From Candidatus Poribacteria bacterium (GTDB taxonomy: Bacteria > Poribacteria > WGA-4E > PCPOR2b): a DNA stretch of 64,000 nucleotides. The stretch covers positions 32,001 to 96,000 of the forward strand of contig OZ220744.1 of NCBI GenBank assembly GCA_965116925.1, in the 5' to 3' direction. Below, piece by piece: positions 49,070-59,088 of the stretch; the stretch's first letter is position 1; every line of letters begins with the position of its first letter. The notes beneath the pieces were generated by a model, which made no database searches, was not told the DNA's origin, and worked only from the letters and a program-made list of their open reading frames with translations. The position numbers were made by a program, and so were the translations under genes.

Positions 49070-52000
49070 GTGCGAATTATCAAACCTACAAAACGACACC
49101 GTCCGTACCCGAAAAAACAAGCTCTTTCTACGCTATTATCTAAAAACGGGTGCTGTTTATTTATCCTTATCCTTCTGTTCCAATTTTTTCCATCCTTTTT
49201 CTTTATGCAAGGCGAATCGCTCGTTTGGGCGTTACGCTTTCAGACCTCACCGCAGGCGATTGATGATGTTGATGAGGACAATGTTTTTAGCCCAAATGGA
49301 GATGGTGTACAAGATACGCTCCTCATTAGTTTTGTCACCGATGGCGATTTCGGTGATTTCCGGATTATCATTGATACGCATGGTCCGAGTGGGGTTGGTA
49401 AGCCTGATGGGCAATTTCGTGTTGACGAAGATTGGGTAATTACAGGGGAAGTTGGGCCCGGAATTGACCAGTTCGCCCCTCCAACAGCCATCCGTGAAGC
49501 GTGGGACGGGAATGATTTTTCCAGACAGCAAGAGGAGAAAAATCCGCACCCACTCAGCGATGGACGGTATCGGATTCGGATCGAAATTGACGCTGTTCCC
49601 AACGAGGAAGTGAGTCGTGCGGAGTCAGGATACCTTGCGATTCAACTTTCCGCGATAATTGACAATGAACTTCCGCAACTATCAGCCACTGCTCTCCAAC
49701 GGGATTTGTCGCCGAATGGGGATACTATCACAGACGAAATACAAATTGACTACGGACTTTCCGAGAGTTTGGTGGAACTTGAGTTGCAATTTACTGATCC
49801 GTCAGATCGACCGGCAATTCCGTTGACTCGATTTACGGAAGGGAAGAATCACACATTTACTTGGACGGGGGTTGATGGCTTAGATACGAGATTAAGTGAC
49901 GGCACCTACACCGTTCAACTGCATGGGACTGACAGGGGTGGTAACGTGGTGACTTTTGGACTCGGTAGTTTCCAAATTGACACAAAGTCTCCTATCATTG
50001 CCCAGCTAACGCCGAGGCGGAACTCGTTTCAGAATACACCCATTGAACAGATTGAGGCAATATTCGACGTGGGTGATGGAAGCCTTATTGATGTTGACTC
50101 AACCTTTACAGAAATTCTTTTATTGAATGCAAACGGTGCACAAATTAGTGGAGTGGTTAATCATGATGAAGAGGCAGGTCGCATCACGCTGACGCTCGAT
50201 CGGTCTGTTGATTCCAGTGATGAAAACGGTGTTTACACAATCAGTGTTTCTGGTGCAGACAAAGCCGGCAATATTGTCTCAGATGAAGTCAGTTTCACCT
50301 TTGATAATGTTGCCCCGATGGTCACAAGCATTGCAACCGATGTTGGTGAGTTGACTCCCGATACGGTTACCACCACAAAATTCACTTTCGTTGATGTAAC
50401 CTTGGCGGATAACATTGACTCTAGGGTCAATACCGCTTCAACGGTTCGCTTGAGTGGGGCTGAAGGAGCTACAATAGCTGGGATCCAGAGTCAAGTTGGA
50501 GAAAACGGTATCCGTTGGACACCGGGATTTCCTCTGGCGACAGATGGTTCTTACGATGGAAGATACACCATCACAGTGCAGTCTCGAGACCGTGCAGGAA
50601 ATGAGGTTGAGATTCAGATCCCTTTCCTCTACGATACCCAAGTCCCTGAGTTAGTTCTTACATCGGGATCAGGGGTTCAACTGAACACTTCAGAAGGAGT
50701 AGAAGCCTTCCTGACAAGTCCCTTATCTGTATTGACAGCGACCTTTAACGACGGAAACGGCAGTGGCACTGACTTTAGTAAAACATCTGTTGAGATGGCT
50801 CGTTTCGCTCGAGCGGATGGGGCACAAGTTCCGGTCCAAGGGACACTTATCTCTGATGAAGATAATGACGTACTAGGATTTCGACTAAATCAGCCTCTAG
50901 AACGCCGCAATGGAAGTCAGGATGGCACCTATCTTATTCGAGTGAGATCGACCGACAAAGCGGGCAATGCTGAGACAAGAAATATTGAACTCATTTACGA
51001 TACACAAGCACCTGCGATTGTCTCAACAATTCGGACCGCAAATCCGCTGACCACTGAACGGATTGAGGTTGAACTTGAAGTGACTGATACCTTTGCAGGT
51101 GTGGAGGGAAGTGGATTTGACGTTTCTACATCAACCTTTGAGTTATTTGATGTAAATGGTGCTATGGTCGACGGTGCACAAACGAACGATGGTGCCGGTA
51201 AATTTGCGTTTCGCTCTCGTATACTGCCAGAGGGTGGTATGTATACCCTTGTTGTTACGCTGGCGGATCGGGCGGGCAACCGTAGTATTCCATTGCCGCT
51301 TATCTACGATGCCGAAGAGCCTACTATTGAAACAGTCAGCCACATTGAACCGATCGCAACTGTTTCTAACGTAGGTGAATTTCTGAGGCGGGTAGAAGCA
51401 ACTGTTAGTGATGTTGGCACCGGTATTGATTTCGATCAATCGCTGATTCAGTTGCTCAATGCTGCAGGAGAGGTCGTCCCCGGCACACCATATCACGATG
51501 ATGAAGCAACAGTTGGGTGGGAGTTAGCAACTCCGCTCACCCGTGAAGGCAACTTTGATGGGCTATACTCGCTCCGTGTCAGGGCTGTTGATAAAGCCGG
51601 GTACGTTGAAGAAAGAACCTATGCGTTACGCTACGACACGCAGGTACCTATTATCCATACCGCTCTTGTTGCACAAAACGATGGGACCGCTATAGAGTTG
51701 TCCGGTGTAGAAGCTCAACTGATTACGTCTCCAGTCAACCAGATTACCGTGAAATTCTCTGATGGAGAGGGCAGTGGTATGGATGTTTTGCGAACAACCG
51801 TAAGCCTTATCGGACCCGAAGGGACGCCAGTTGGCACGAATCAGAGTGACAATGGAGTAGATACAGTTTATCTTTCGTTCAATCCGTTGCGCGTAGATGG
51901 ATCCGACGATGGATTTTACCGTATTCAGGTAACTCCCACCGATTTAGCAGGTAACATGCTCACAAGCCCGGTTGAATTTCCATTTTTCTACGGTACGCGC

Positions 52001-55000
52001 AAACCAGAGGTTATTGCCACTACACCGACTGAATTTGCAGCCGTCACCCACCTGACCGAAGTCAGCGCGACATTGCAAGACCACAGCGGCAAAGGCATCG
52101 ATTTTGATCTTACGACAATTTTCTTAAAAGCACCGGATCAATCATCAATCCTTGGCTATCAAACGGTAGATGAAGCGCAATCATCGGTTACTTGGGAACT
52201 AAATCAGCTTCTATCACGGGACGGTTCAGTGGATGGCGAATACACCATCCAACTGTCGCTTGTTGATAAGGCGGGAAACAGTACGGATGCCGATCACACA
52301 TTCATCTACGATACACTTATCCCAACCGTCGTTTCTGTGATGGTGAACACAGAAACGCCAACAATCCTCCCATTAAACGGATTAACAGCTATTGAGACTT
52401 CGTTTAATGGATTGACTATCAAGCTTTCTGATGCAAATGGCGCAACAACACCGGTGAGTGGAATAGATCTGGTTGGCACCGGTGTCCAGTTACTCGGTCC
52501 GGGGAAGACACCCCTCAACATCAATATTCGCGATGATGGCGTAGATACCATCATCGTCAGCTTTGCCTCGCTGTATCAGTCGGGGAGTTACACGCTCGCA
52601 GTCACACCGCGGGACATGGCGGGCAATGTCTCAAGCCACGCTGTTGAGTACGAATTCGGTTTGGAACTTGGTCACAGTACTGTTTCTGAGGTAACGATTG
52701 GTGGACGAATGGCACCGGTCGAGTTTGTGAACCGGCTGGAGGAAATCATTGCAACACTTGAAGATGTCAGTGCCACCGGGTTGAATTTGACTTCGGATGG
52801 TTCGACAATTACCGTAACGGGGCCCCATGGTGAGGTTGAGGGGGTTCAAACCGCACGTGGAGGAAACCAGATTGTGTGGAGACCACTACAGCTTGCCACA
52901 GATGGTTCGGTAGATGGGGTTTACTCCGCAACCATCACCCCCATCAATAGTGACGGCCGATTGGGAATACCAGCTCGGCACCAATTCACGCTTGATACAC
53001 AGGAGCCTGAAGTGACTTTGGTAACGCCGATTGATCTGACGCAGCCGTTGTCCTACATCGGTCGGCAGCTTATCCAAATCGCTGCTCAGATTGAAGATGT
53101 AGGACCGGCGGGTTTGGAGGTTGAAGACCAACACCTTCAGCTACTTGATGCCGGAGGGAATGTTGTCCCAGCAGTTCAGACCAACGATGGGGAATCTCAA
53201 ATCTTTCTGACACTTTCGCAGCCGCTTACAGCCGATGGGAGCGACGATGGGATATACACCGTCACTCTAGATTTGATGGACAAGGCCGCTAACCTTAACT
53301 CGATTTCACATCAACTCGTTTATGATACGCAAGCTCCAACACTTGTCAGCACGAATCCAACCGATGGCAGTCTCCGTAGTGACGATATAACGTTGATTAC
53401 AGTGCGTCTGAACGACCTCGGTGGTAGTGGCATTGATTTCGCCGAATCAATGTTGACGCTATTAGATTCAACCGGCACTCCAGTTAGCGGCGTGCAGAGC
53501 AACGATGGGAATCGAAGACTAACATTGCAAATTAGCGGTCTTGTAGCGGATGGCAATTATACAATCCGTGTGGAGGCAATCGATCGCGCGGGCAACGGAT
53601 CAAACGCCCCATTTGAGACACAATTCACCTTTTCGTCCGGTATGCCGGTTGTTATTTCAACCGTTCCCAAAACCGCGCCTGCGGAAGAAGCATTCACAAA
53701 CGAACCGCTCCATCAGGTCTCGGTTGAACTTCAATCGGAGGATGAAGGGGCGGACCGTTCGACAATCGCGCTGCTTGCTCCCGATGGCACAACAGTGCCA
53801 GGACAGCAGGTGCGTCGAGGAAAATTATTAATTTATCGACTCTTGAAAGAACTCGCCACCGATGGCTCCGACGATGGCACCTATACTATTGTAGTAATAC
53901 CCATCAATAGCGCAGGGCGACAGGGACAACCGGAGCAATTTACCTTTGCTTATGATACCATTGCACCCGAGGTGGTCCCAACCTCTATTCAACTAATCGT
54001 TGCCGAACCGGGTGTTAATAATTCGTTGGTTTCGGTCGGGGCACTTATCGCAGATGACGAACCAAGTTCCGGGGTGGATTGGGATAACCTTGATCTGTCA
54101 TGGATTACCCTTAATGATACCAGACGGAACCGCAAGATTGAGGGAACGCTTGCCACCGATGAAGAACAGGCTCTTGTGTTAAACTTAGTTATGCCACTCG
54201 CTAGCGATGGAAGTCAAGACGGTGTATATCTGTTAACAATTGTGCCGAAGGACCGGGCGGGCAACGTCACTGAAGCGGTCAGCTACCCCTTCTTCTACGA
54301 CACACGTCCACCGATGATTGATGCTAACTCGTTGTTTATTGATGGGCAACCGTTGCTTACTGACTCGAATGATCCGTATTACCCTTCAGCGACCAACAAG
54401 AGTGGCAGCATCATCATTGATGCAAAGTTCTCCGATGTCAATCCGGATGGCAGTTACGGCCTTGGACCCGATTTGGTCAACTCATCAGTTACCGTCCGTT
54501 CTCCTGCTGGAGACGTTATCACCGGAACCACGACACAGAACGGCACCGACAGCATCCGCTTCAAATCTGGCCCACTCAATGAGCAGGGACATTATCAGGT
54601 GACTATCACCAGTGTTGGCTTGGATTCTGCAAATCTCGGCTTCCAGCCAACTGATTCGGTCACGACACAGTTCCTCTTTGAAACAACAAAGCCGGTCGTT
54701 GAACTCACCGATTTAGCTGGAGAAACAACCTTTGAAGATGAACCGTTGCCATTGCAAGGCACTGCACGTGATCCGTCTGAGGATGAAATCCCTGCATCTG
54801 AAGTCGCGCTAGTTGAGGTGGTCGGTACTGGCCCTGATGGGCTACTAATTGACCCAGTTGTTGCAAAAGATGACAGTGAGGAAGAGGAAGATCCGTGGAG
54901 TCGCTGGTCAATTGATTTTCTGCCTTCTCAGTCTGGTGAATATAACCTAGATGTTCGCGTTACCGATCGCGCCGGTAATGCTGGTATTTACGATGCCGTG

Positions 55001-55360
55001 ACTGTCAATTTCTCAGTGTCACTTATCTTCAAAGGCCCAACATATGTTTGGCCTAATCCACTGAGCCTCTCAAGACGTTCAAATGGTGAAATTGCTAATT
55101 TCTCCTTTGAAGTCAACGTCCCCGGGGGTGAAGGCGCGCAGATTGTCCTAAGTATCTACGATTTCGCCGGTGACTTGGTGTACGAAAAGGAATACGATGA
55201 TCTCGGCACTGGTAGGAGCGACAATAAAGTGAGGTGGGATCTCACCAATCAGTCCGGCACTGATGTTGCCCGTGGAATCTATATTTTCCGCTTAGAAGCC
55301 GAGGATGTGGTGACGAGTAATCGCACTAATGCGATCGGGAAGATTGTCGTGGTAGAGTAG
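49070..55360 (+). CDS. 2096-aa surface protein: FlgD-like Ig domains, about 15 bacterial Ig-like repeats, C-terminal T9SS-type/FlgD-like sorting domain
   Basis: FSPNGDG motifs; repeated LxxDGSxDGxYxIxVxxxD(K/R)AGN...YDT; C-terminus VWPNP...WDLTNQSG..VARGIYIFRL...GKIVVVE. Confidence 0.85.
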   Translation: MRIIKPTKRHRPYPKKQALSTLLSKNGCCLFILILLFQFFPSFFFMQGESLVWALRFQTSPQAIDDVDEDNVFSPNGDGVQDTLLISFVTDGDFGDFRIIIDTHGPSGVGKPDGQFRVDEDWVITGEVGPGIDQFAPPTAIREAWDGNDFSRQQEEKNPHPLSDGRYRIRIEIDAVPNEEVSRAESGYLAIQLSAIIDNELPQLSATALQRDLSPNGDTITDEIQIDYGLSESLVELELQFTDPSDRPAIPLTRFTEGKNHTFTWTGVDGLDTRLSDGTYTVQLHGTDRGGNVVTFGLGSFQIDTKSPIIAQLTPRRNSFQNTPIEQIEAIFDVGDGSLIDVDSTFTEILLLNANGAQISGVVNHDEEAGRITLTLDRSVDSSDENGVYTISVSGADKAGNIVSDEVSFTFDNVAPMVTSIATDVGELTPDTVTTTKFTFVDVTLADNIDSRVNTASTVRLSGAEGATIAGIQSQVGENGIRWTPGFPLATDGSYDGRYTITVQSRDRAGNEVEIQIPFLYDTQVPELVLTSGSGVQLNTSEGVEAFLTSPLSVLTATFNDGNGSGTDFSKTSVEMARFARADGAQVPVQGTLISDEDNDVLGFRLNQPLERRNGSQDGTYLIRVRSTDKAGNAETRNIELIYDTQAPAIVSTIRTANPLTTERIEVELEVTDTFAGVEGSGFDVSTSTFELFDVNGAMVDGAQTNDGAGKFAFRSRILPEGGMYTLVVTLADRAGNRSIPLPLIYDAEEPTIETVSHIEPIATVSNVGEFLRRVEATVSDVGTGIDFDQSLIQLLNAAGEVVPGTPYHDDEATVGWELATPLTREGNFDGLYSLRVRAVDKAGYVEERTYALRYDTQVPIIHTALVAQNDGTAIELSGVEAQLITSPVNQITVKFSDGEGSGMDVLRTTVSLIGPEGTPVGTNQSDNGVDTVYLSFNPLRVDGSDDGFYRIQVTPTDLAGNMLTSPVEFPFFYGTRKPEVIATTPTEFAAVTHLTEVSATLQDHSGKGIDFDLTTIFLKAPDQSSILGYQTVDEAQSSVTWELNQLLSRDGSVDGEYTIQLSLVDKAGNSTDADHTFIYDTLIPTVVSVMVNTETPTILPLNGLTAIETSFNGLTIKLSDANGATTPVSGIDLVGTGVQLLGPGKTPLNINIRDDGVDTIIVSFASLYQSGSYTLAVTPRDMAGNVSSHAVEYEFGLELGHSTVSEVTIGGRMAPVEFVNRLEEIIATLEDVSATGLNLTSDGSTITVTGPHGEVEGVQTARGGNQIVWRPLQLATDGSVDGVYSATITPINSDGRLGIPARHQFTLDTQEPEVTLVTPIDLTQPLSYIGRQLIQIAAQIEDVGPAGLEVEDQHLQLLDAGGNVVPAVQTNDGESQIFLTLSQPLTADGSDDGIYTVTLDLMDKAANLNSISHQLVYDTQAPTLVSTNPTDGSLRSDDITLITVRLNDLGGSGIDFAESMLTLLDSTGTPVSGVQSNDGNRRLTLQISGLVADGNYTIRVEAIDRAGNGSNAPFETQFTFSSGMPVVISTVPKTAPAEEAFTNEPLHQVSVELQSEDEGADRSTIALLAPDGTTVPGQQVRRGKLLIYRLLKELATDGSDDGTYTIVVIPINSAGRQGQPEQFTFAYDTIAPEVVPTSIQLIVAEPGVNNSLVSVGALIADDEPSSGVDWDNLDLSWITLNDTRRNRKIEGTLATDEEQALVLNLVMPLASDGSQDGVYLLTIVPKDRAGNVTEAVSYPFFYDTRPPMIDANSLFIDGQPLLTDSNDPYYPSATNKSGSIIIDAKFSDVNPDGSYGLGPDLVNSSVTVRSPAGDVITGTTTQNGTDSIRFKSGPLNEQGHYQVTITSVGLDSANLGFQPTDSVTTQFLFETTKPVVELTDLAGETTFEDEPLPLQGTARDPSEDEIPASEVALVEVVGTGPDGLLIDPVVAKDDSEEEEDPWSRWSIDFLPSQSGEYNLDVRVTDRAGNAGIYDAVTVNFSVSLIFKGPTYVWPNPLSLSRRSNGEIANFSFEVNVPGGEGAQIVLSIYDFAGDLVYEKEYDDLGTGRSDNKVRWDLTNQSGTDVARGIYIFRLEAEDVVTSNRTNAIGKIVVVE

Positions 55361-55416: not shown

Positions 55417-56490
55417 ATGAACCAAATTACAGAATTGGAGAAACAGATGCCCCTAAAACAGGAATTAATCGGGATTAAAGGATTAACAGAATTGATAGGA
55501 TTAAAAGACAGGGATTGCTGCAATCCTAAAATCCTGAAAATCCTGATTCTGACACTATTTTTTGTAATCATTGCTTTCCCCGCCTTTGCTGCGGATATTC
55601 ACGACGATGCCGGCACAACGGGTGCTGCATTCCTTAAAATTGAAGCCGGCAGCCGCCCTGCTGGGATGGGAGGAGCGTTCGCAGGCTTGGCTAACGATGT
55701 CAATACGCTATACTGGAATCCCGCTGGGTTGACAGCGGTGGGTGAACGCCAATTTACTGCCATGCAGAATTTCTCGATTGCAGATATTAGTAACCAATTC
55801 CTCGGTTATGCGCAAAAATTCAGCGACAGAAGCACTTGGGGGGCAAGTTTTCTCGGGGCGTTTACAGAGATCGAACGCCGTCGTAGAGCAACCGAGGAAC
55901 CTGACAGCACCGCCACAGTCGGTGGTTTTGCTGCGGGATTGTCCCTCGCGTATATTTTATCCCCACAGTTGTCGGTTGGAGCAACAGCCAAAACAATTTC
56001 TCAGCAACTTGACGTTGAAGATTCAATTGGTGCTGCTGCCGATGTTGGAATGCTTTTGCGAATCGCGAACAATCGGCTTGGCATAGGAATCGCAGCGCAA
56101 AATCTCGGTGTTCTGGATACAGGGGAAAATCTGCCAATGAATGTGCGAGGTGGATTCGCTTACCAGGTCCGCGCTGAACCTAACCCTGACAGTGGAAGGC
56201 AACCACGAGACCTTTTTGCATTAGCTGCTGATGTCAACTACCCAATTGTTGCTGGGTATCCAACCTTCCATTTGGGGGCAGAGAATTGGTTCTACAATAT
56301 GCTTGCCCTTCGCGCTGGATATAGTTTTAGCCAAGGAGAGAACCCTAAAAATGGGTTGACCGCTGGGTTCGGGCTGCGTCGAATAGGGGAAGCGTCTCTG
56401 CAAAACGTCAACTTCCAATTTGACTACGCCTTCGTTCCAGACCAAGCTGTTGGCAATGCTCACCGAGTTTCTCTCCTCCTGCGATTCTGA
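55417..56490 (+). CDS. PorV/PorQ-family outer-membrane beta-barrel
   Basis: FLKIEAGSRPAGMGGAF...YWNPAGL; LALRAGY; DYAF...GNAHRVSL..RF. Confidence 0.85.
   Translation: MNQITELEKQMPLKQELIGIKGLTELIGLKDRDCCNPKILKILILTLFFVIIAFPAFAADIHDDAGTTGAAFLKIEAGSRPAGMGGAFAGLANDVNTLYWNPAGLTAVGERQFTAMQNFSIADISNQFLGYAQKFSDRSTWGASFLGAFTEIERRRRATEEPDSTATVGGFAAGLSLAYILSPQLSVGATAKTISQQLDVEDSIGAAADVGMLLRIANNRLGIGIAAQNLGVLDTGENLPMNVRGGFAYQVRAEPNPDSGRQPRDLFALAADVNYPIVAGYPTFHLGAENWFYNMLALRAGYSFSQGENPKNGLTAGFGLRRIGEASLQNVNFQFDYAFVPDQAVGNAHRVSLLLRF
55456..55553. repeat. GGATT/AATCC short-repeat palindromic element inside the 5' end of the PorV-like gene
   Basis: GGGATTAAAGGATT...AGGATTAAAAG followed by AATCCTAAAATCCTGAAAATCCTGATTCTGAC. 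Confidence 0.65.
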
Positions 56491-56551: not shown

Positions 56552-57586
56552 ATGAACATCATCTGCACAGGAATCAGTTGTTCAGGACGAAAAGAATTGA
56601 TGGGAGAGTTTGAAGCACTCTGCTGCAATAAAGGGCTGCGGGTTGGCTTTTTCAACGTCGGTGATTTTATGCACAGTGCAGCTGCAGCCTCCGGAATTCA
56701 ATTCACAGACAAAGTGCTCGACTCTGATCCCGCTGTCCTGTCGTTGGCACGCCGATCGGCTTTCTATGAGATTGCCAACGCTGCACACGGCTATGACCAC
56801 ACCTTCGTCGGTCTGCACGCTTGCTTTCGCTGGAATGGAAAACTGGTTGAAGGCGTCTCATTCCAAGATGTGCAGGGTTTTCCGGCTGACGTATTTGTCA
56901 ATGTGGTAGACAATCTTGCGGACATCACTCAACGTATGAAAGATAATCCGCAGTGGGGGGGCATGAGACGCGATGAAATTAATGTCTGGCTCGACGAAGA
57001 AGAATTTCTGACCAAACAATTCGCTAACCTCAAAGGAAAAAATCACTATACCGTTGCTCGACAGCACAATCTGGAAAACGTCTACGACCTGCTCTTTTCA
57101 AAAAAGAAGAAATTTTACCTGAGTTATCCGATCACGCTTATCCGCCGAGATGCACCGAATCAGATTGAAAACATCCGTAGGTTTGGTTCAAAGATGCGGA
57201 AAGATTTTATCATATTTGATCCGCTCGACATTGAGGATATGGACCTGATTCATTCTACGGAACCCTCTCAGGAGGAGGCAGCTGACAGTAAGATCACAAC
57301 TGTCAGTGATATAGATCAAAATTTCAGCGTGCAGATTAAAACACGCACCATCTCCAGAGACTATCAGTTCATTCACCAGAGCGATTTTGTTATTGTTATC
57401 TATCCAACGGATAAACTCTCCCCCGGCGTCCTGAGTGAGATGAACTTTGCCTCGCGCTATAACAAACCCGTTTATGCCGTATACTCCCATGCACGTAGCC
57501 CATTTTTCGAGCATCTGTGCGAACGGATCTTCGACACCATTGAGGAACTCGAAGCTTTTCTGGGAGATCAGCAAACGGAGATTTAG
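56552..57586 (+). CDS. Fusion of an NMP-kinase-like P-loop domain and a nucleoside 2-deoxyribosyltransferase-like domain
   Basis: TGISCSGRKE P-loop variant; C-terminal FYLSYPI...DYQFIHQSD...SPGVLSEM..A...KPVY. Confidence 0.65.
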   Translation: MNIICTGISCSGRKELMGEFEALCCNKGLRVGFFNVGDFMHSAAAASGIQFTDKVLDSDPAVLSLARRSAFYEIANAAHGYDHTFVGLHACFRWNGKLVEGVSFQDVQGFPADVFVNVVDNLADITQRMKDNPQWGGMRRDEINVWLDEEEFLTKQFANLKGKNHYTVARQHNLENVYDLLFSKKKKFYLSYPITLIRRDAPNQIENIRRFGSKMRKDFIIFDPLDIEDMDLIHSTEPSQEEAADSKITTVSDIDQNFSVQIKTRTISRDYQFIHQSDFVIVIYPTDKLSPGVLSEMNFASRYNKPVYAVYSHARSPFFEHLCERIFDTIEELEAFLGDQQTEI

Positions 57587-57675
57587 CGGATAGGCTTCGG
57601 TTCTAACAGAACTTAGAGTCAGCGATCCATATAGGCCCCAGTCGGAATGTCGAGGCAATGAAATTAGGATTTGAA

Positions 57676-58199
57676 AATACTGGAAACGATCCCAATGCTT
57701 TAGCGTTGGGTCAGACAGCATAATTTTAGTTGATTTTCTTGGCAAAGTATGGTGTACAAAGAATCACAGACTTGCAAAGCTATTATCAGACGCTTCATTA
57801 TCAAGTCTGCTGGCTATGCTCAAATACAAAGCAGAACGGTTAGGCGTAAAGATTGTGGAAGCCGATACGTTCTACCCGTCCAGTAAGACTTGCTCCGCTT
57901 GTGGATCCAAAAATAGTGACCTGTCACTATCGGATAGGACTTACCATTGCAGCGATTGTGGGCATACACAAGACCGAGACTTAAACGCTGCAATAAATCT
58001 TAGAAACGTCGCCGTGGGACACACGGAGACGTAAAACGCTTGTCCGAAAGGATCCCGATTTATCGGGGTGGAGATTTTGTAAGTCCTCACCTTCAACACG
58101 AGGCAAGAATCGCTGAAGCAAGAAAATAGCATGGAGACAGAAAATGTCTACCAATCAGTCTATTAAGAATCCCAATGTTTCAACTTTGGGAGCAGTCAA
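57676..58199 (+). mobile_element. Internally deleted IS200/IS605 (tnpB-type) element inserted after TTGAA at the rimK start
   Basis: Left-end hairpin GATCCCAATGCTTTAGCGTTGGGTC; tnpB remnant; right end GAATCCCAATGTTTCAACTTTGGGAGCAGTCAA. Confidence 0.8.
57759..58034 (+). pseudogene. tnpB: C-terminal fragment of RNA-guided endonuclease TnpB
   Basis: KNHRLAKLLSDAS...LKYKAE...YPSSKTCSACG...CSDCG...DRDLNAAINL (zinc finger plus RuvC-III). Confidence 0.9.
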
Positions 58200-59088
58200 A
58201 ATTGGCATCATCTCCCTCGGCACGCAAAATCACGCCACTCGACGATTGGTTGAAGCCTCACTCGCAGCCGGGCACATACCGAAAGTTCTTAACCCATTTG
58301 GATTCTATCTGCATATCGGCGGTTCAGGAGCACCTATTTACTACGAAGAAACTCCCGCCACAGATTTCGATGTTGTGCTCCCACGGCTAAGTGCGTCAAC
58401 AGCGCAATACGGTGAGGAGGTAGTGGCACATTTTGAATGGAATGGTACGCCAGTCGTCAATCGATCTTATGCGATTGCAAACGCCCGAAATAAATTCCGT
58501 GCCCTCCGCATCCTTGCCCAGCATGGACTACCTGTCCCGCCTAGTTTTGCCGCGGGTTCAGCCCGTTACGTGGATAGATCTGTCCATCAAACCGGCGAAT
58601 ACCCATTCATAATGAAACCCTTTGAGGGTACTCACGGCAATGCAATCTTACTGCTCGATACCCCGACATCGCTACAGTCGGCGATTGGTGCAATGTGTGA
58701 TCTCCATCAAGACTATGTCATCCAACCTTTTATCGGGGAGTCGGCAGGGAACGATGTGCGAGTGATCATCATTGGCGGAAGGGTTGTTGCTGCCATGAGG
58801 AGAACCGCACAGGAAGGCGAGTTTCGATCGAACGTCCACCGCGGCGGACAGGGACATCCTATTGAACTTCAAAACGAATACATTGACACAGCAATCCGAG
58901 CTGCAGAAGCAATGGAGTTGAATATTGCGGGGGTAGATCTGTTGGAGACGCTAGCAGGTCCAATGGTGTTGGAGGTCAACCCATCGCCGGGATTTGAAGA
59001 AATCGAAACAGTTACAGGAATCAAAGTCGCGGATGCGATGATTGCATTTGCTATCGAATATTCTCAAGCTACGAGAAAAACGGATTAA
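58144..59088 (+). CDS. rimK: RimK-family ATP-grasp alpha-L-glutamate ligase (N-terminal 18 aa derived from IS right end)
   Basis: KIGIISL, ARNKFR, KPFEGTHG, EFRSNVHRGG, AGVDLL...VLEVNPSPG. Confidence 0.82.
   Translation: MSTNQSIKNPNVSTLGAVKIGIISLGTQNHATRRLVEASLAAGHIPKVLNPFGFYLHIGGSGAPIYYEETPATDFDVVLPRLSASTAQYGEEVVAHFEWNGTPVVNRSYAIANARNKFRALRILAQHGLPVPPSFAAGSARYVDRSVHQTGEYPFIMKPFEGTHGNAILLLDTPTSLQSAIGAMCDLHQDYVIQPFIGESAGNDVRVIIIGGRVVAAMRRTAQEGEFRSNVHRGGQGHPIELQNEYIDTAIRAAEAMELNIAGVDLLETLAGPMVLEVNPSPGFEEIETVTGIKVADAMIAFAIEYSQATRKTD

Follow-up and report, generated by a model that had tools for sequence, protein, structure and literature searches.

A tnpB element family of Candidatus Poribacteria whose right end probably serves as a portable translation start

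The elements ISDra2, IS608, and ISGst1-5, together with the PATEs, are characterized by subterminal hairpins, a short 5′ motif, tnpB, and a guide derived from the flanking DNA (excerpts of PMC8612924 and PMC10055086), and trans-mobilised derivatives and flexible boundary choice have been described for IS200/IS605 elements (excerpts of PMC10055086). In IStrons, group I splicing restores the mRNA, and the 3′ RNA is shared with the omegaRNA function (excerpts of 10.1101/2023.11.20.567912). The dusA-targeting IMEs and the ICE SXT at prfC insert at the 5′ end of a gene and give it a new N-terminus; these are large elements that depend on a site-specific integrase, each has a single target gene, and their promoter has been demonstrated (excerpts of PMC8409611). 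The Neisseria REP2 and Borrelia IR-A repeats, described as being of unknown origin, carry an RBS and an ATG that are fused to downstream genes (excerpts of PMC3184786).

The rimK locus and its element

The window analysed here is a 64,000-nucleotide stretch of a Candidatus Poribacteria genome (G000), in which a tnpB-derived element is located at the 5′ end of a rimK gene. Candidatus Poribacteria are sponge-symbiont bacteria. The features of the locus, in positions of the window, are as follows:

56552..57586, plus strand: upstream co-oriented gene, 344 aa, with weak P-loop and nucleoside-deoxyribosyltransferase-like Pfam hits below cut-off
57671..57675, plus strand: TTGAA left flank and target motif, the upstream member of two native TGAA motifs
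57676..58199, plus strand: IS200/IS605 element of the tnpB-only type, internally deleted, 524 bp (full copies 1419-1444 bp)
57676..57757, plus strand: left end of the element, with a subterminal hairpin (57691-57710) and a damaged promoter-like stretch
57730-57735 and 57753-57758, plus strand: −35-like and −10-like parts of the promoter-like stretch in the left end; the deletion junction alters the −10-like part
57758..58034, plus strand: 3′ remnant of tnpB with zinc finger and RuvC-III (PF07282, E=1.8e-22)
58035..58199, plus strand: predicted omegaRNA/reRNA scaffold and right end, from fold and covariation
58126..58163, plus strand: covarying stem–loop, with the SD GGAG (58133-58136) on the 5′ arm and the ATG (58144-58146) at the edge of loop and 3′ arm
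58144..58197, plus strand: element-encoded leader of 18 codons; the junction is spanned by codon 58198-58200
58144..59088, plus strand: RimK-family alpha-L-glutamate ligase gene (TIGR00768), now opened by the element ATG
58171-58190, plus strand: right-end hairpin, followed by the terminal TCAA (58196-58199)
58200..58219, plus strand: predicted guide, which is the rimK 5′ coding sequence, by analogy with excerpts of PMC8612924

The element has subterminal hairpins at both ends and is without terminal inverted repeats; its ends, its target motif, and its TnpB assign it to the IS200/IS605 group. Its boundaries agree with those of other copies, in which the left ends follow (A/T)TGAA and the right ends terminate in GTCAA, and the insertion is located 3′ of NTGAA without target duplication, the empty G000 orthologs of several sites being joined cleanly. 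Searches with blast showed that G000 contains three end-intact family copies of 1419-1444 bp and one copy without the left end, and all four encode a full-length TnpB with intact RuvC D-E-D motifs and zinc finger. The initial annotation had called the window copy a TnpB element; the blast comparison with the genome showed that it is not intact, as about 900 bp, with most of tnpB among them, are missing at the junction 57757/57758. The 3′ remnant, which is 84-91% identical in nucleotide sequence to four other copies, encodes only the C-terminal part of the protein. TldR proteins are nuclease-dead domesticated TnpBs, which are full-length with an inactivated RuvC; this identity was rejected, because the window copy is truncated and the full copies keep the RuvC motifs. 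A REP-like short palindrome was observed in the predicted omegaRNA (window 58052-58069) and also in several other copies. In a number of start-site copies (L032, L083, L125, and L126) the left-end hairpin is broken up by related palindromes, so that these copies would be immobile.

The rimK product matched TIGR00768 with 222.9 bits (cut-off 143.4), as a RimK-family ATP-grasp ligase, and the S6-ligase equivalog PRK10446 with 220.5 bits, which is under its cut-off of 331; one match was found in the genome. The TTGAA, GGAG, ATG, and TCAA motifs lie where they had been placed initially, and, as had also been proposed, the ATG in the right end, preceded by GGAG with a 7-nt spacer, opens a frame of 314 aa that continues into the ligase. 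The TTGAA had been regarded both as a target motif and as the source of a native TTG start, with the joined flanks as the empty site. The data showed that the uninserted gene begins with ATG AAA ATY GGY in 18/18 element-free genomes, among 20 genomes of the genus, and that 16 nt located between two TGAA motifs in uninserted relatives, the native ATG included, are missing from the window site. TTGAA stands as the target motif, and the proposed empty site was wrong because the native ATG had been deleted. An ATG at 57658 was also considered as the native start and rejected, as it is out of frame. Since the next in-frame ATG inside rimK is codon 140, and the use of an earlier TTG or GTG would trim the conserved N-terminus, the element ATG is the only plausible start of the gene. 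The N-terminal extension MSTNQS..., whose presence in element-free orthologs would have spoken against its origin from the element, is absent from them.

The same insertion with the same 16-nt loss is present in a second genome, G005, where a different internal deletion has removed the left-end hairpin and the promoter region. The two rimK genes differ at 43/212 synonymous and 14/652 non-synonymous positions (pN/pS 0.11), and the median pN/pS among 33 uninserted pairs is 0.13; judged by these pairwise counts, rimK remains under purifying selection. Within the element, the last 165 nt (58035..58199) contain one difference between the genomes, compared with 16/277 in the tnpB remnant (p=0.004), and conversion among copies could add to the similarity of the right ends. 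In the rimK tree G005 groups with the uninserted G001 (support 94), so that part of the divergence between G000 and G005 may predate the insertion. Recent homing between these two genomes is unsupported, because the synonymous divergence of the tnpB remnant (10/48) equals that of rimK; the flanks beside the site are somewhat closer between G000 and G005. The inserted allele is also carried by contigs of an independent study, and the precise-excision joint (57675 to 58200) was not seen among the contigs of three covered runs. No second match to TGAA followed by the rimK guide, of at least 12 nt, was found in the genome.

The element had initially been credited with supplying the promoter of rimK as well, and this part of the proposal found no support. 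The plus strand of the element contains no sigma70 consensus site, and there is no terminator-like site in 57400-58400. The family left end has a −35/−10-like motif in other copies, the last base of the −10-like box is changed in the window copy, and the G005 allele is without this region. The upstream co-oriented gene, which has no NCBIfam match, ends 85 nt away and precedes rimK at 27/29 relatives' loci, and probable read-through from it into rimK would be a simpler explanation than an element promoter. Farther upstream, the window contains a gene for a repetitive, probably secreted protein of 2096 aa (49070-55360), which is followed by a gene for a PorV/UPF0164-like outer-membrane protein with weak Pfam hits (55417-56490).

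Start-codon occupancy across the family

To compare the sites of insertion, right ends were classed, blind to SD and ATG, according to the sequence immediately 5′ of the terminal hairpin, which gave 49 records of class M, 37 of class X, and 16 of class B; 59 class O records, with false right-end matches among them, were excluded from all counts. Copies with a common downstream flank were merged into one site, and gene starts were taken from our own crude gene caller (5075 predicted genes). The sites come from related genomes, in each of which the true number is at least the number counted. The target motif of class M is NTGAA, and that of class X, which is without an in-frame SD and start, is NTGAC. 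The sequence ATGAA is the commonest gene start (1070/5075 predicted genes), and starts make up 7.6% of the non-disrupting NTGAA sites and 20% of the ATGAA sites.

The data showed that 25 of the 42 distinct class M sites are at start codons, compared with a null proportion of 0.076 for all NTGAA sites or 0.20 for ATGAA sites only (p=3e-8 against 0.20). This number consists of 22 junctions located exactly 5 nt past a predicted start, as determined by mapping the flanks to empty G000 orthologs, with rimK and two further G000 sites confirmed by uninserted relatives. An open frame of 100 or more codons continued from the element in frame 0 at 29/42 class M sites, in frames 1 and 2 at one site each, and in frame 0 at 3/34 class X sites (M versus X, Fisher p=1e-7). 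None of the 25 mappable class X junctions is at a predicted start, and the same is true of the three X sites with an open frame. A held-out class with TCAG ends was at starts in 6/11 sites, and start-less TGAA-type elements in 0/9, with the motif visible for seven of them. In both cases of an X-like scaffold with its own SD-ATG (21-22 codons), at pyrG and thiO, the element is at a start. On the other hand, class B, the members of which are short and tnpB-less and have an SD-GTG in frame, occupies a start at only 1/8 sites, so that an SD and a start codon alone do not predict the enrichment. At a probable start site, L152, the right-end ATG is changed to ATA.

Insertions are also overrepresented within 90 nt 5′ of co-oriented starts (X 14/25, non-start M 8/9, null 0.18), which suggests a general bias toward gene 5′ regions. 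When a null for the vicinity of starts was used, the class M distribution of 25 sites at starts versus eight near them still deviated from it (null 0.32, p=2e-7). Because intact copies are enriched at starts as well (15/25), retention driven by decay is not the whole cause of the pattern. The left-end hairpin was undetected in 12/33 start-site copies versus 0/11 others (p=0.02); five of the start-site copies counted here are at probable starts, and another five copies, truncated by contig ends, were excluded.

The arrangement of the right end is well conserved. The ATG 56 nt from the element end is kept in 59/61 copies of classes M and M2, with a stop in the leader in 1/61, and this distance is constant in spite of indels between SD and ATG, so that any insertion after ATG-AA stays in frame. 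The GGAG spacers of 6, 7, or 8 nt are the three commonest spacings of host genes. In L110 and L120 an M-type right end is paired with an X-like TnpB, and L110 follows an ATGAC start, which indicates that start occupancy tracks the right end and not the TnpB clade. A pN/pS estimate for L110 and L120 was discarded as an artefact of ungapped comparison. The TnpB tree, which was built by a quick method and has a long root, supports the SD-ATG neither as ancestral nor as derived. Exact matches to the right end numbered 65 in the GTDB collection, all in Candidatus Poribacteria, and in a sample of 121 genomes of the order the right end was present in at least 14, all in one genus; pattern scans of metagenomes returned 0 loci, and thus no replicate outside the GTDB genomes. 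In L073 the TnpB frame extends across the right end as far as the boundary of the element. Frame-0 ORFs of 379 and 468 codons follow right ends that belong to other tnpB classes at G000:C1:1489913 (minus strand) and C1:5408075, respectively, and no SD-start was found in these right ends.

The interrupted genes include nadD, an NAD kinase-like gene, ribBA, mnmG, a cysH-like reductase gene, thiO, fmt, pyrG, ubiX, and a class B PBP gene, several of which are usually essential. The pyrG of G005 and the fmt of G004 that carry the element are the sole copies above cut-off in genomes that are 97-99% complete, and likewise nadD in the genome of L111; the NAD kinase has a second family member. The native ATG of fmt was lost by a deletion resembling that at rimK, in which the left end is joined to a TGAA 21 nt upstream, and L105 probably has the same kind of deletion. 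At the start of the class B PBP gene, elements of two subtypes were found in three genomes (L131 at G000:C1:4474365, L181 in G004, and L143 in G019), and the thiO start also carries different subtypes in different genomes, which suggests repeated insertion. The initial proposal that the element gives rimK an RBS, a start codon, and an 18-aa leader, and in this way keeps the gene alive, is supported by the sequences of the whole family.

Predicted RNA structure and alternative explanations

The fold of 58000-58220 gave z=-2.98. In 46 selected right ends, the SD-bearing arm is paired with the strand that follows the AUG, and both sides of the pairing have changed between classes. In this alignment 96.7% of cells pair, and 0/500 shuffles reach the covariation score, a test that is inflated by relatedness and uses a structure derived from the same sequences. 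Start-less elements share the conserved stem, and their frame 0 is likewise open across the hairpin; two separate SD-ATG arrangements have arisen through compensatory changes in the stem. In the predicted fold, SD and AUG are in part base-paired, and this pairing could prevent initiation. By analogy with the ISDra2 reRNA (excerpts of PMC8612924), the right end would be the omegaRNA scaffold and the 5′ coding sequence of the gene its guide, and it is structurally plausible, given the covarying stem with SD and AUG and the full-length tnpB copies of G000, that the rimK mRNA is also an omegaRNA precursor, as initially proposed. Competition between the ribosome and TnpB for this shared RNA is plausible, as in the splicing conflict of IStrons (excerpts of 10.1101/2023.11.20.567912). 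As regards the transposase, G000 gave only a partial Y1 TnpA hit (58.4 bits, positions 6-92 of 126), and its other Y1 proteins seem to be RAYT-like. An autonomous tnpA-tnpB element in G014 (L197) has a near-identical left end, a TTGAA flank, a TnpB of about 31% identity, and a different right end; it is likely a helper source of transposase and a sign of module swapping.

These data make it likely that the window copy is an old, decayed member of a Candidatus Poribacteria IS200/IS605 tnpB family, the right end of which would act as a portable translation start. The sequences show that the insertions lie 3′ of NTGAA, with ATGAA as the commonest gene start, and that the right end contains GGAG, 6-8 nt, and an ATG placed exactly 56 nt (18 codons plus 2 nt) before the terminal TCAA/TCAG, so that a gene interrupted in ATG-AA continues in frame with an 18-aa leader. 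Ribosomes would restart at the element ATG on a read-through transcript from upstream, and in this way start-codon insertions could be tolerated even in usually essential genes. Decay of the native start, the left end, or tnpB would follow, and the right end would then be needed by the host gene. In the case of rimK, the 16-nt deletion to the upstream TGAA, which removed the native ATG, could have arisen through mis-joining by TnpA or through slippage. More speculatively, as SD and AUG lie in the omegaRNA stem, translation and TnpB loading may compete for one RNA. We lean slightly toward a broader interpretation, that a translational analogue of the IStron has arisen at least twice among TnpB elements of the genus, in which the omegaRNA stem doubles as RBS and start, essential gene starts are colonised, loss of the native start locks the right end in, and TnpB binding may tune the host gene.

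It could also be that the SD and ATG are by-products of the omegaRNA structure, that insertion near gene 5′ ends has other causes, and that only accidentally rescued copies survive, without any selection having acted on the element. The preference of both classes for the region upstream of starts, the conserved stem and open frame of start-less elements, and the lack of enrichment of class B at starts would fit such chance exaptation followed by a survival filter. We nevertheless regard it as unlikely, given the excess of class M at starts over the near-start null, the two separate SD-ATG arrangements obtained through compensatory stem changes, and the constancy of the 56 nt from ATG to end despite indels between SD and ATG; moreover, even this explanation needs the element ATG to be used.

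Two further possibilities concern rimK itself. RimK-family ligases are often dispensable, and the predicted partial pairing of SD and AUG could mean that the gene is silenced or decaying in G000 and G005, with the in-frame ATG unused. This is rather improbable in view of the intact frame with pN/pS of 0.11, the parallel cases of fmt and pyrG as single-copy genes, and the presence of the inserted allele in the contigs of the independent study. Least probable is an exact insertion behind a native TTG, in which promoter, RBS, and N-terminus would all come from the element, even though the joined flanks give an in-frame TTG and the left end of other copies has a promoter-like motif. The TTG is found in 0/18 uninserted genomes of the genus, all of which have ATG and the 16 extra nt, and AGGA would lie 1 nt from the TTG, a spacing that occurs 15 times in 5075 predicted genes; the G005 allele, which is without the left-end promoter region, speaks against the promoter part.

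Comparison with known systems

No description of start-codon replacement by IS200/IS605-type elements was found in the literature searched, which was mostly open-access. In excerpts of PMC8612924 and PMC10055086 there is no mention of an in-frame SD/ATG in the right end or of a start-codon target, and "start codon" occurs 0 times in those of PMC10055086; the mechanism is also absent from excerpts of PMC7002104 (one anecdote of a hybrid start codon), PMC10691335, and 10.64898/2026.09.24.754181. Selfish elements can reside in genes without harm through splicing or through site-specific 5′ replacement, and a translation start carried by the right end would be a further such strategy, for which the target motif and 70 nt of the element end would suffice. 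The sequences suggest that the interrupted genes, including usually essential ones, are probably still translated and may depend on the element. This predicts a ratchet, by which fmt, pyrG, and similar genes come to depend on the end of a transposon; it also predicts that translation conflicts with the function of the guide RNA, which can be tested. Where the native start is lost, the right end would be irreplaceable for the host gene, and TnpB binding may tune its expression. Many N-termini in these genomes would then carry a shared transposon-derived leader, which annotation would misread.

In its subterminal hairpins, a short 5′ target motif, the lack of target duplication, tnpB with a predicted right-end RNA and a guide from the flank, and non-autonomous derivatives that may be mobilised in trans, the family resembles ISDra2, IS608, and ISGst1-5 as these are described in the excerpts cited above. 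It is different from them in that its target motif NTGAA coincides with start codons and an SD-ATG is present in frame in the right end. It would replace an N-terminus as the dusA IMEs and SXT do; compared with these, it is a 1.4-kb IS with a motif of 4-5 nt and dozens of unrelated targets. For the REP2 and IR-A repeats, in contrast, no transposase motif, TnpB, or guide RNA is given in excerpts of PMC3184786. A match to Rfam in 57400-58500 was at chance level (E=0.39) and outside the element, no group I intron was found in this region, and full copies have no room for one besides tnpB. As judged from the excerpts on IStrons, the two systems would be alike in that a TnpB element becomes tolerable inside genes and one 3′ RNA serves both host expression and the omegaRNA, with a possible conflict between them; the Poribacteria family would rely on translational restart, would add an 18-aa leader, and could do so only at or near a start codon.
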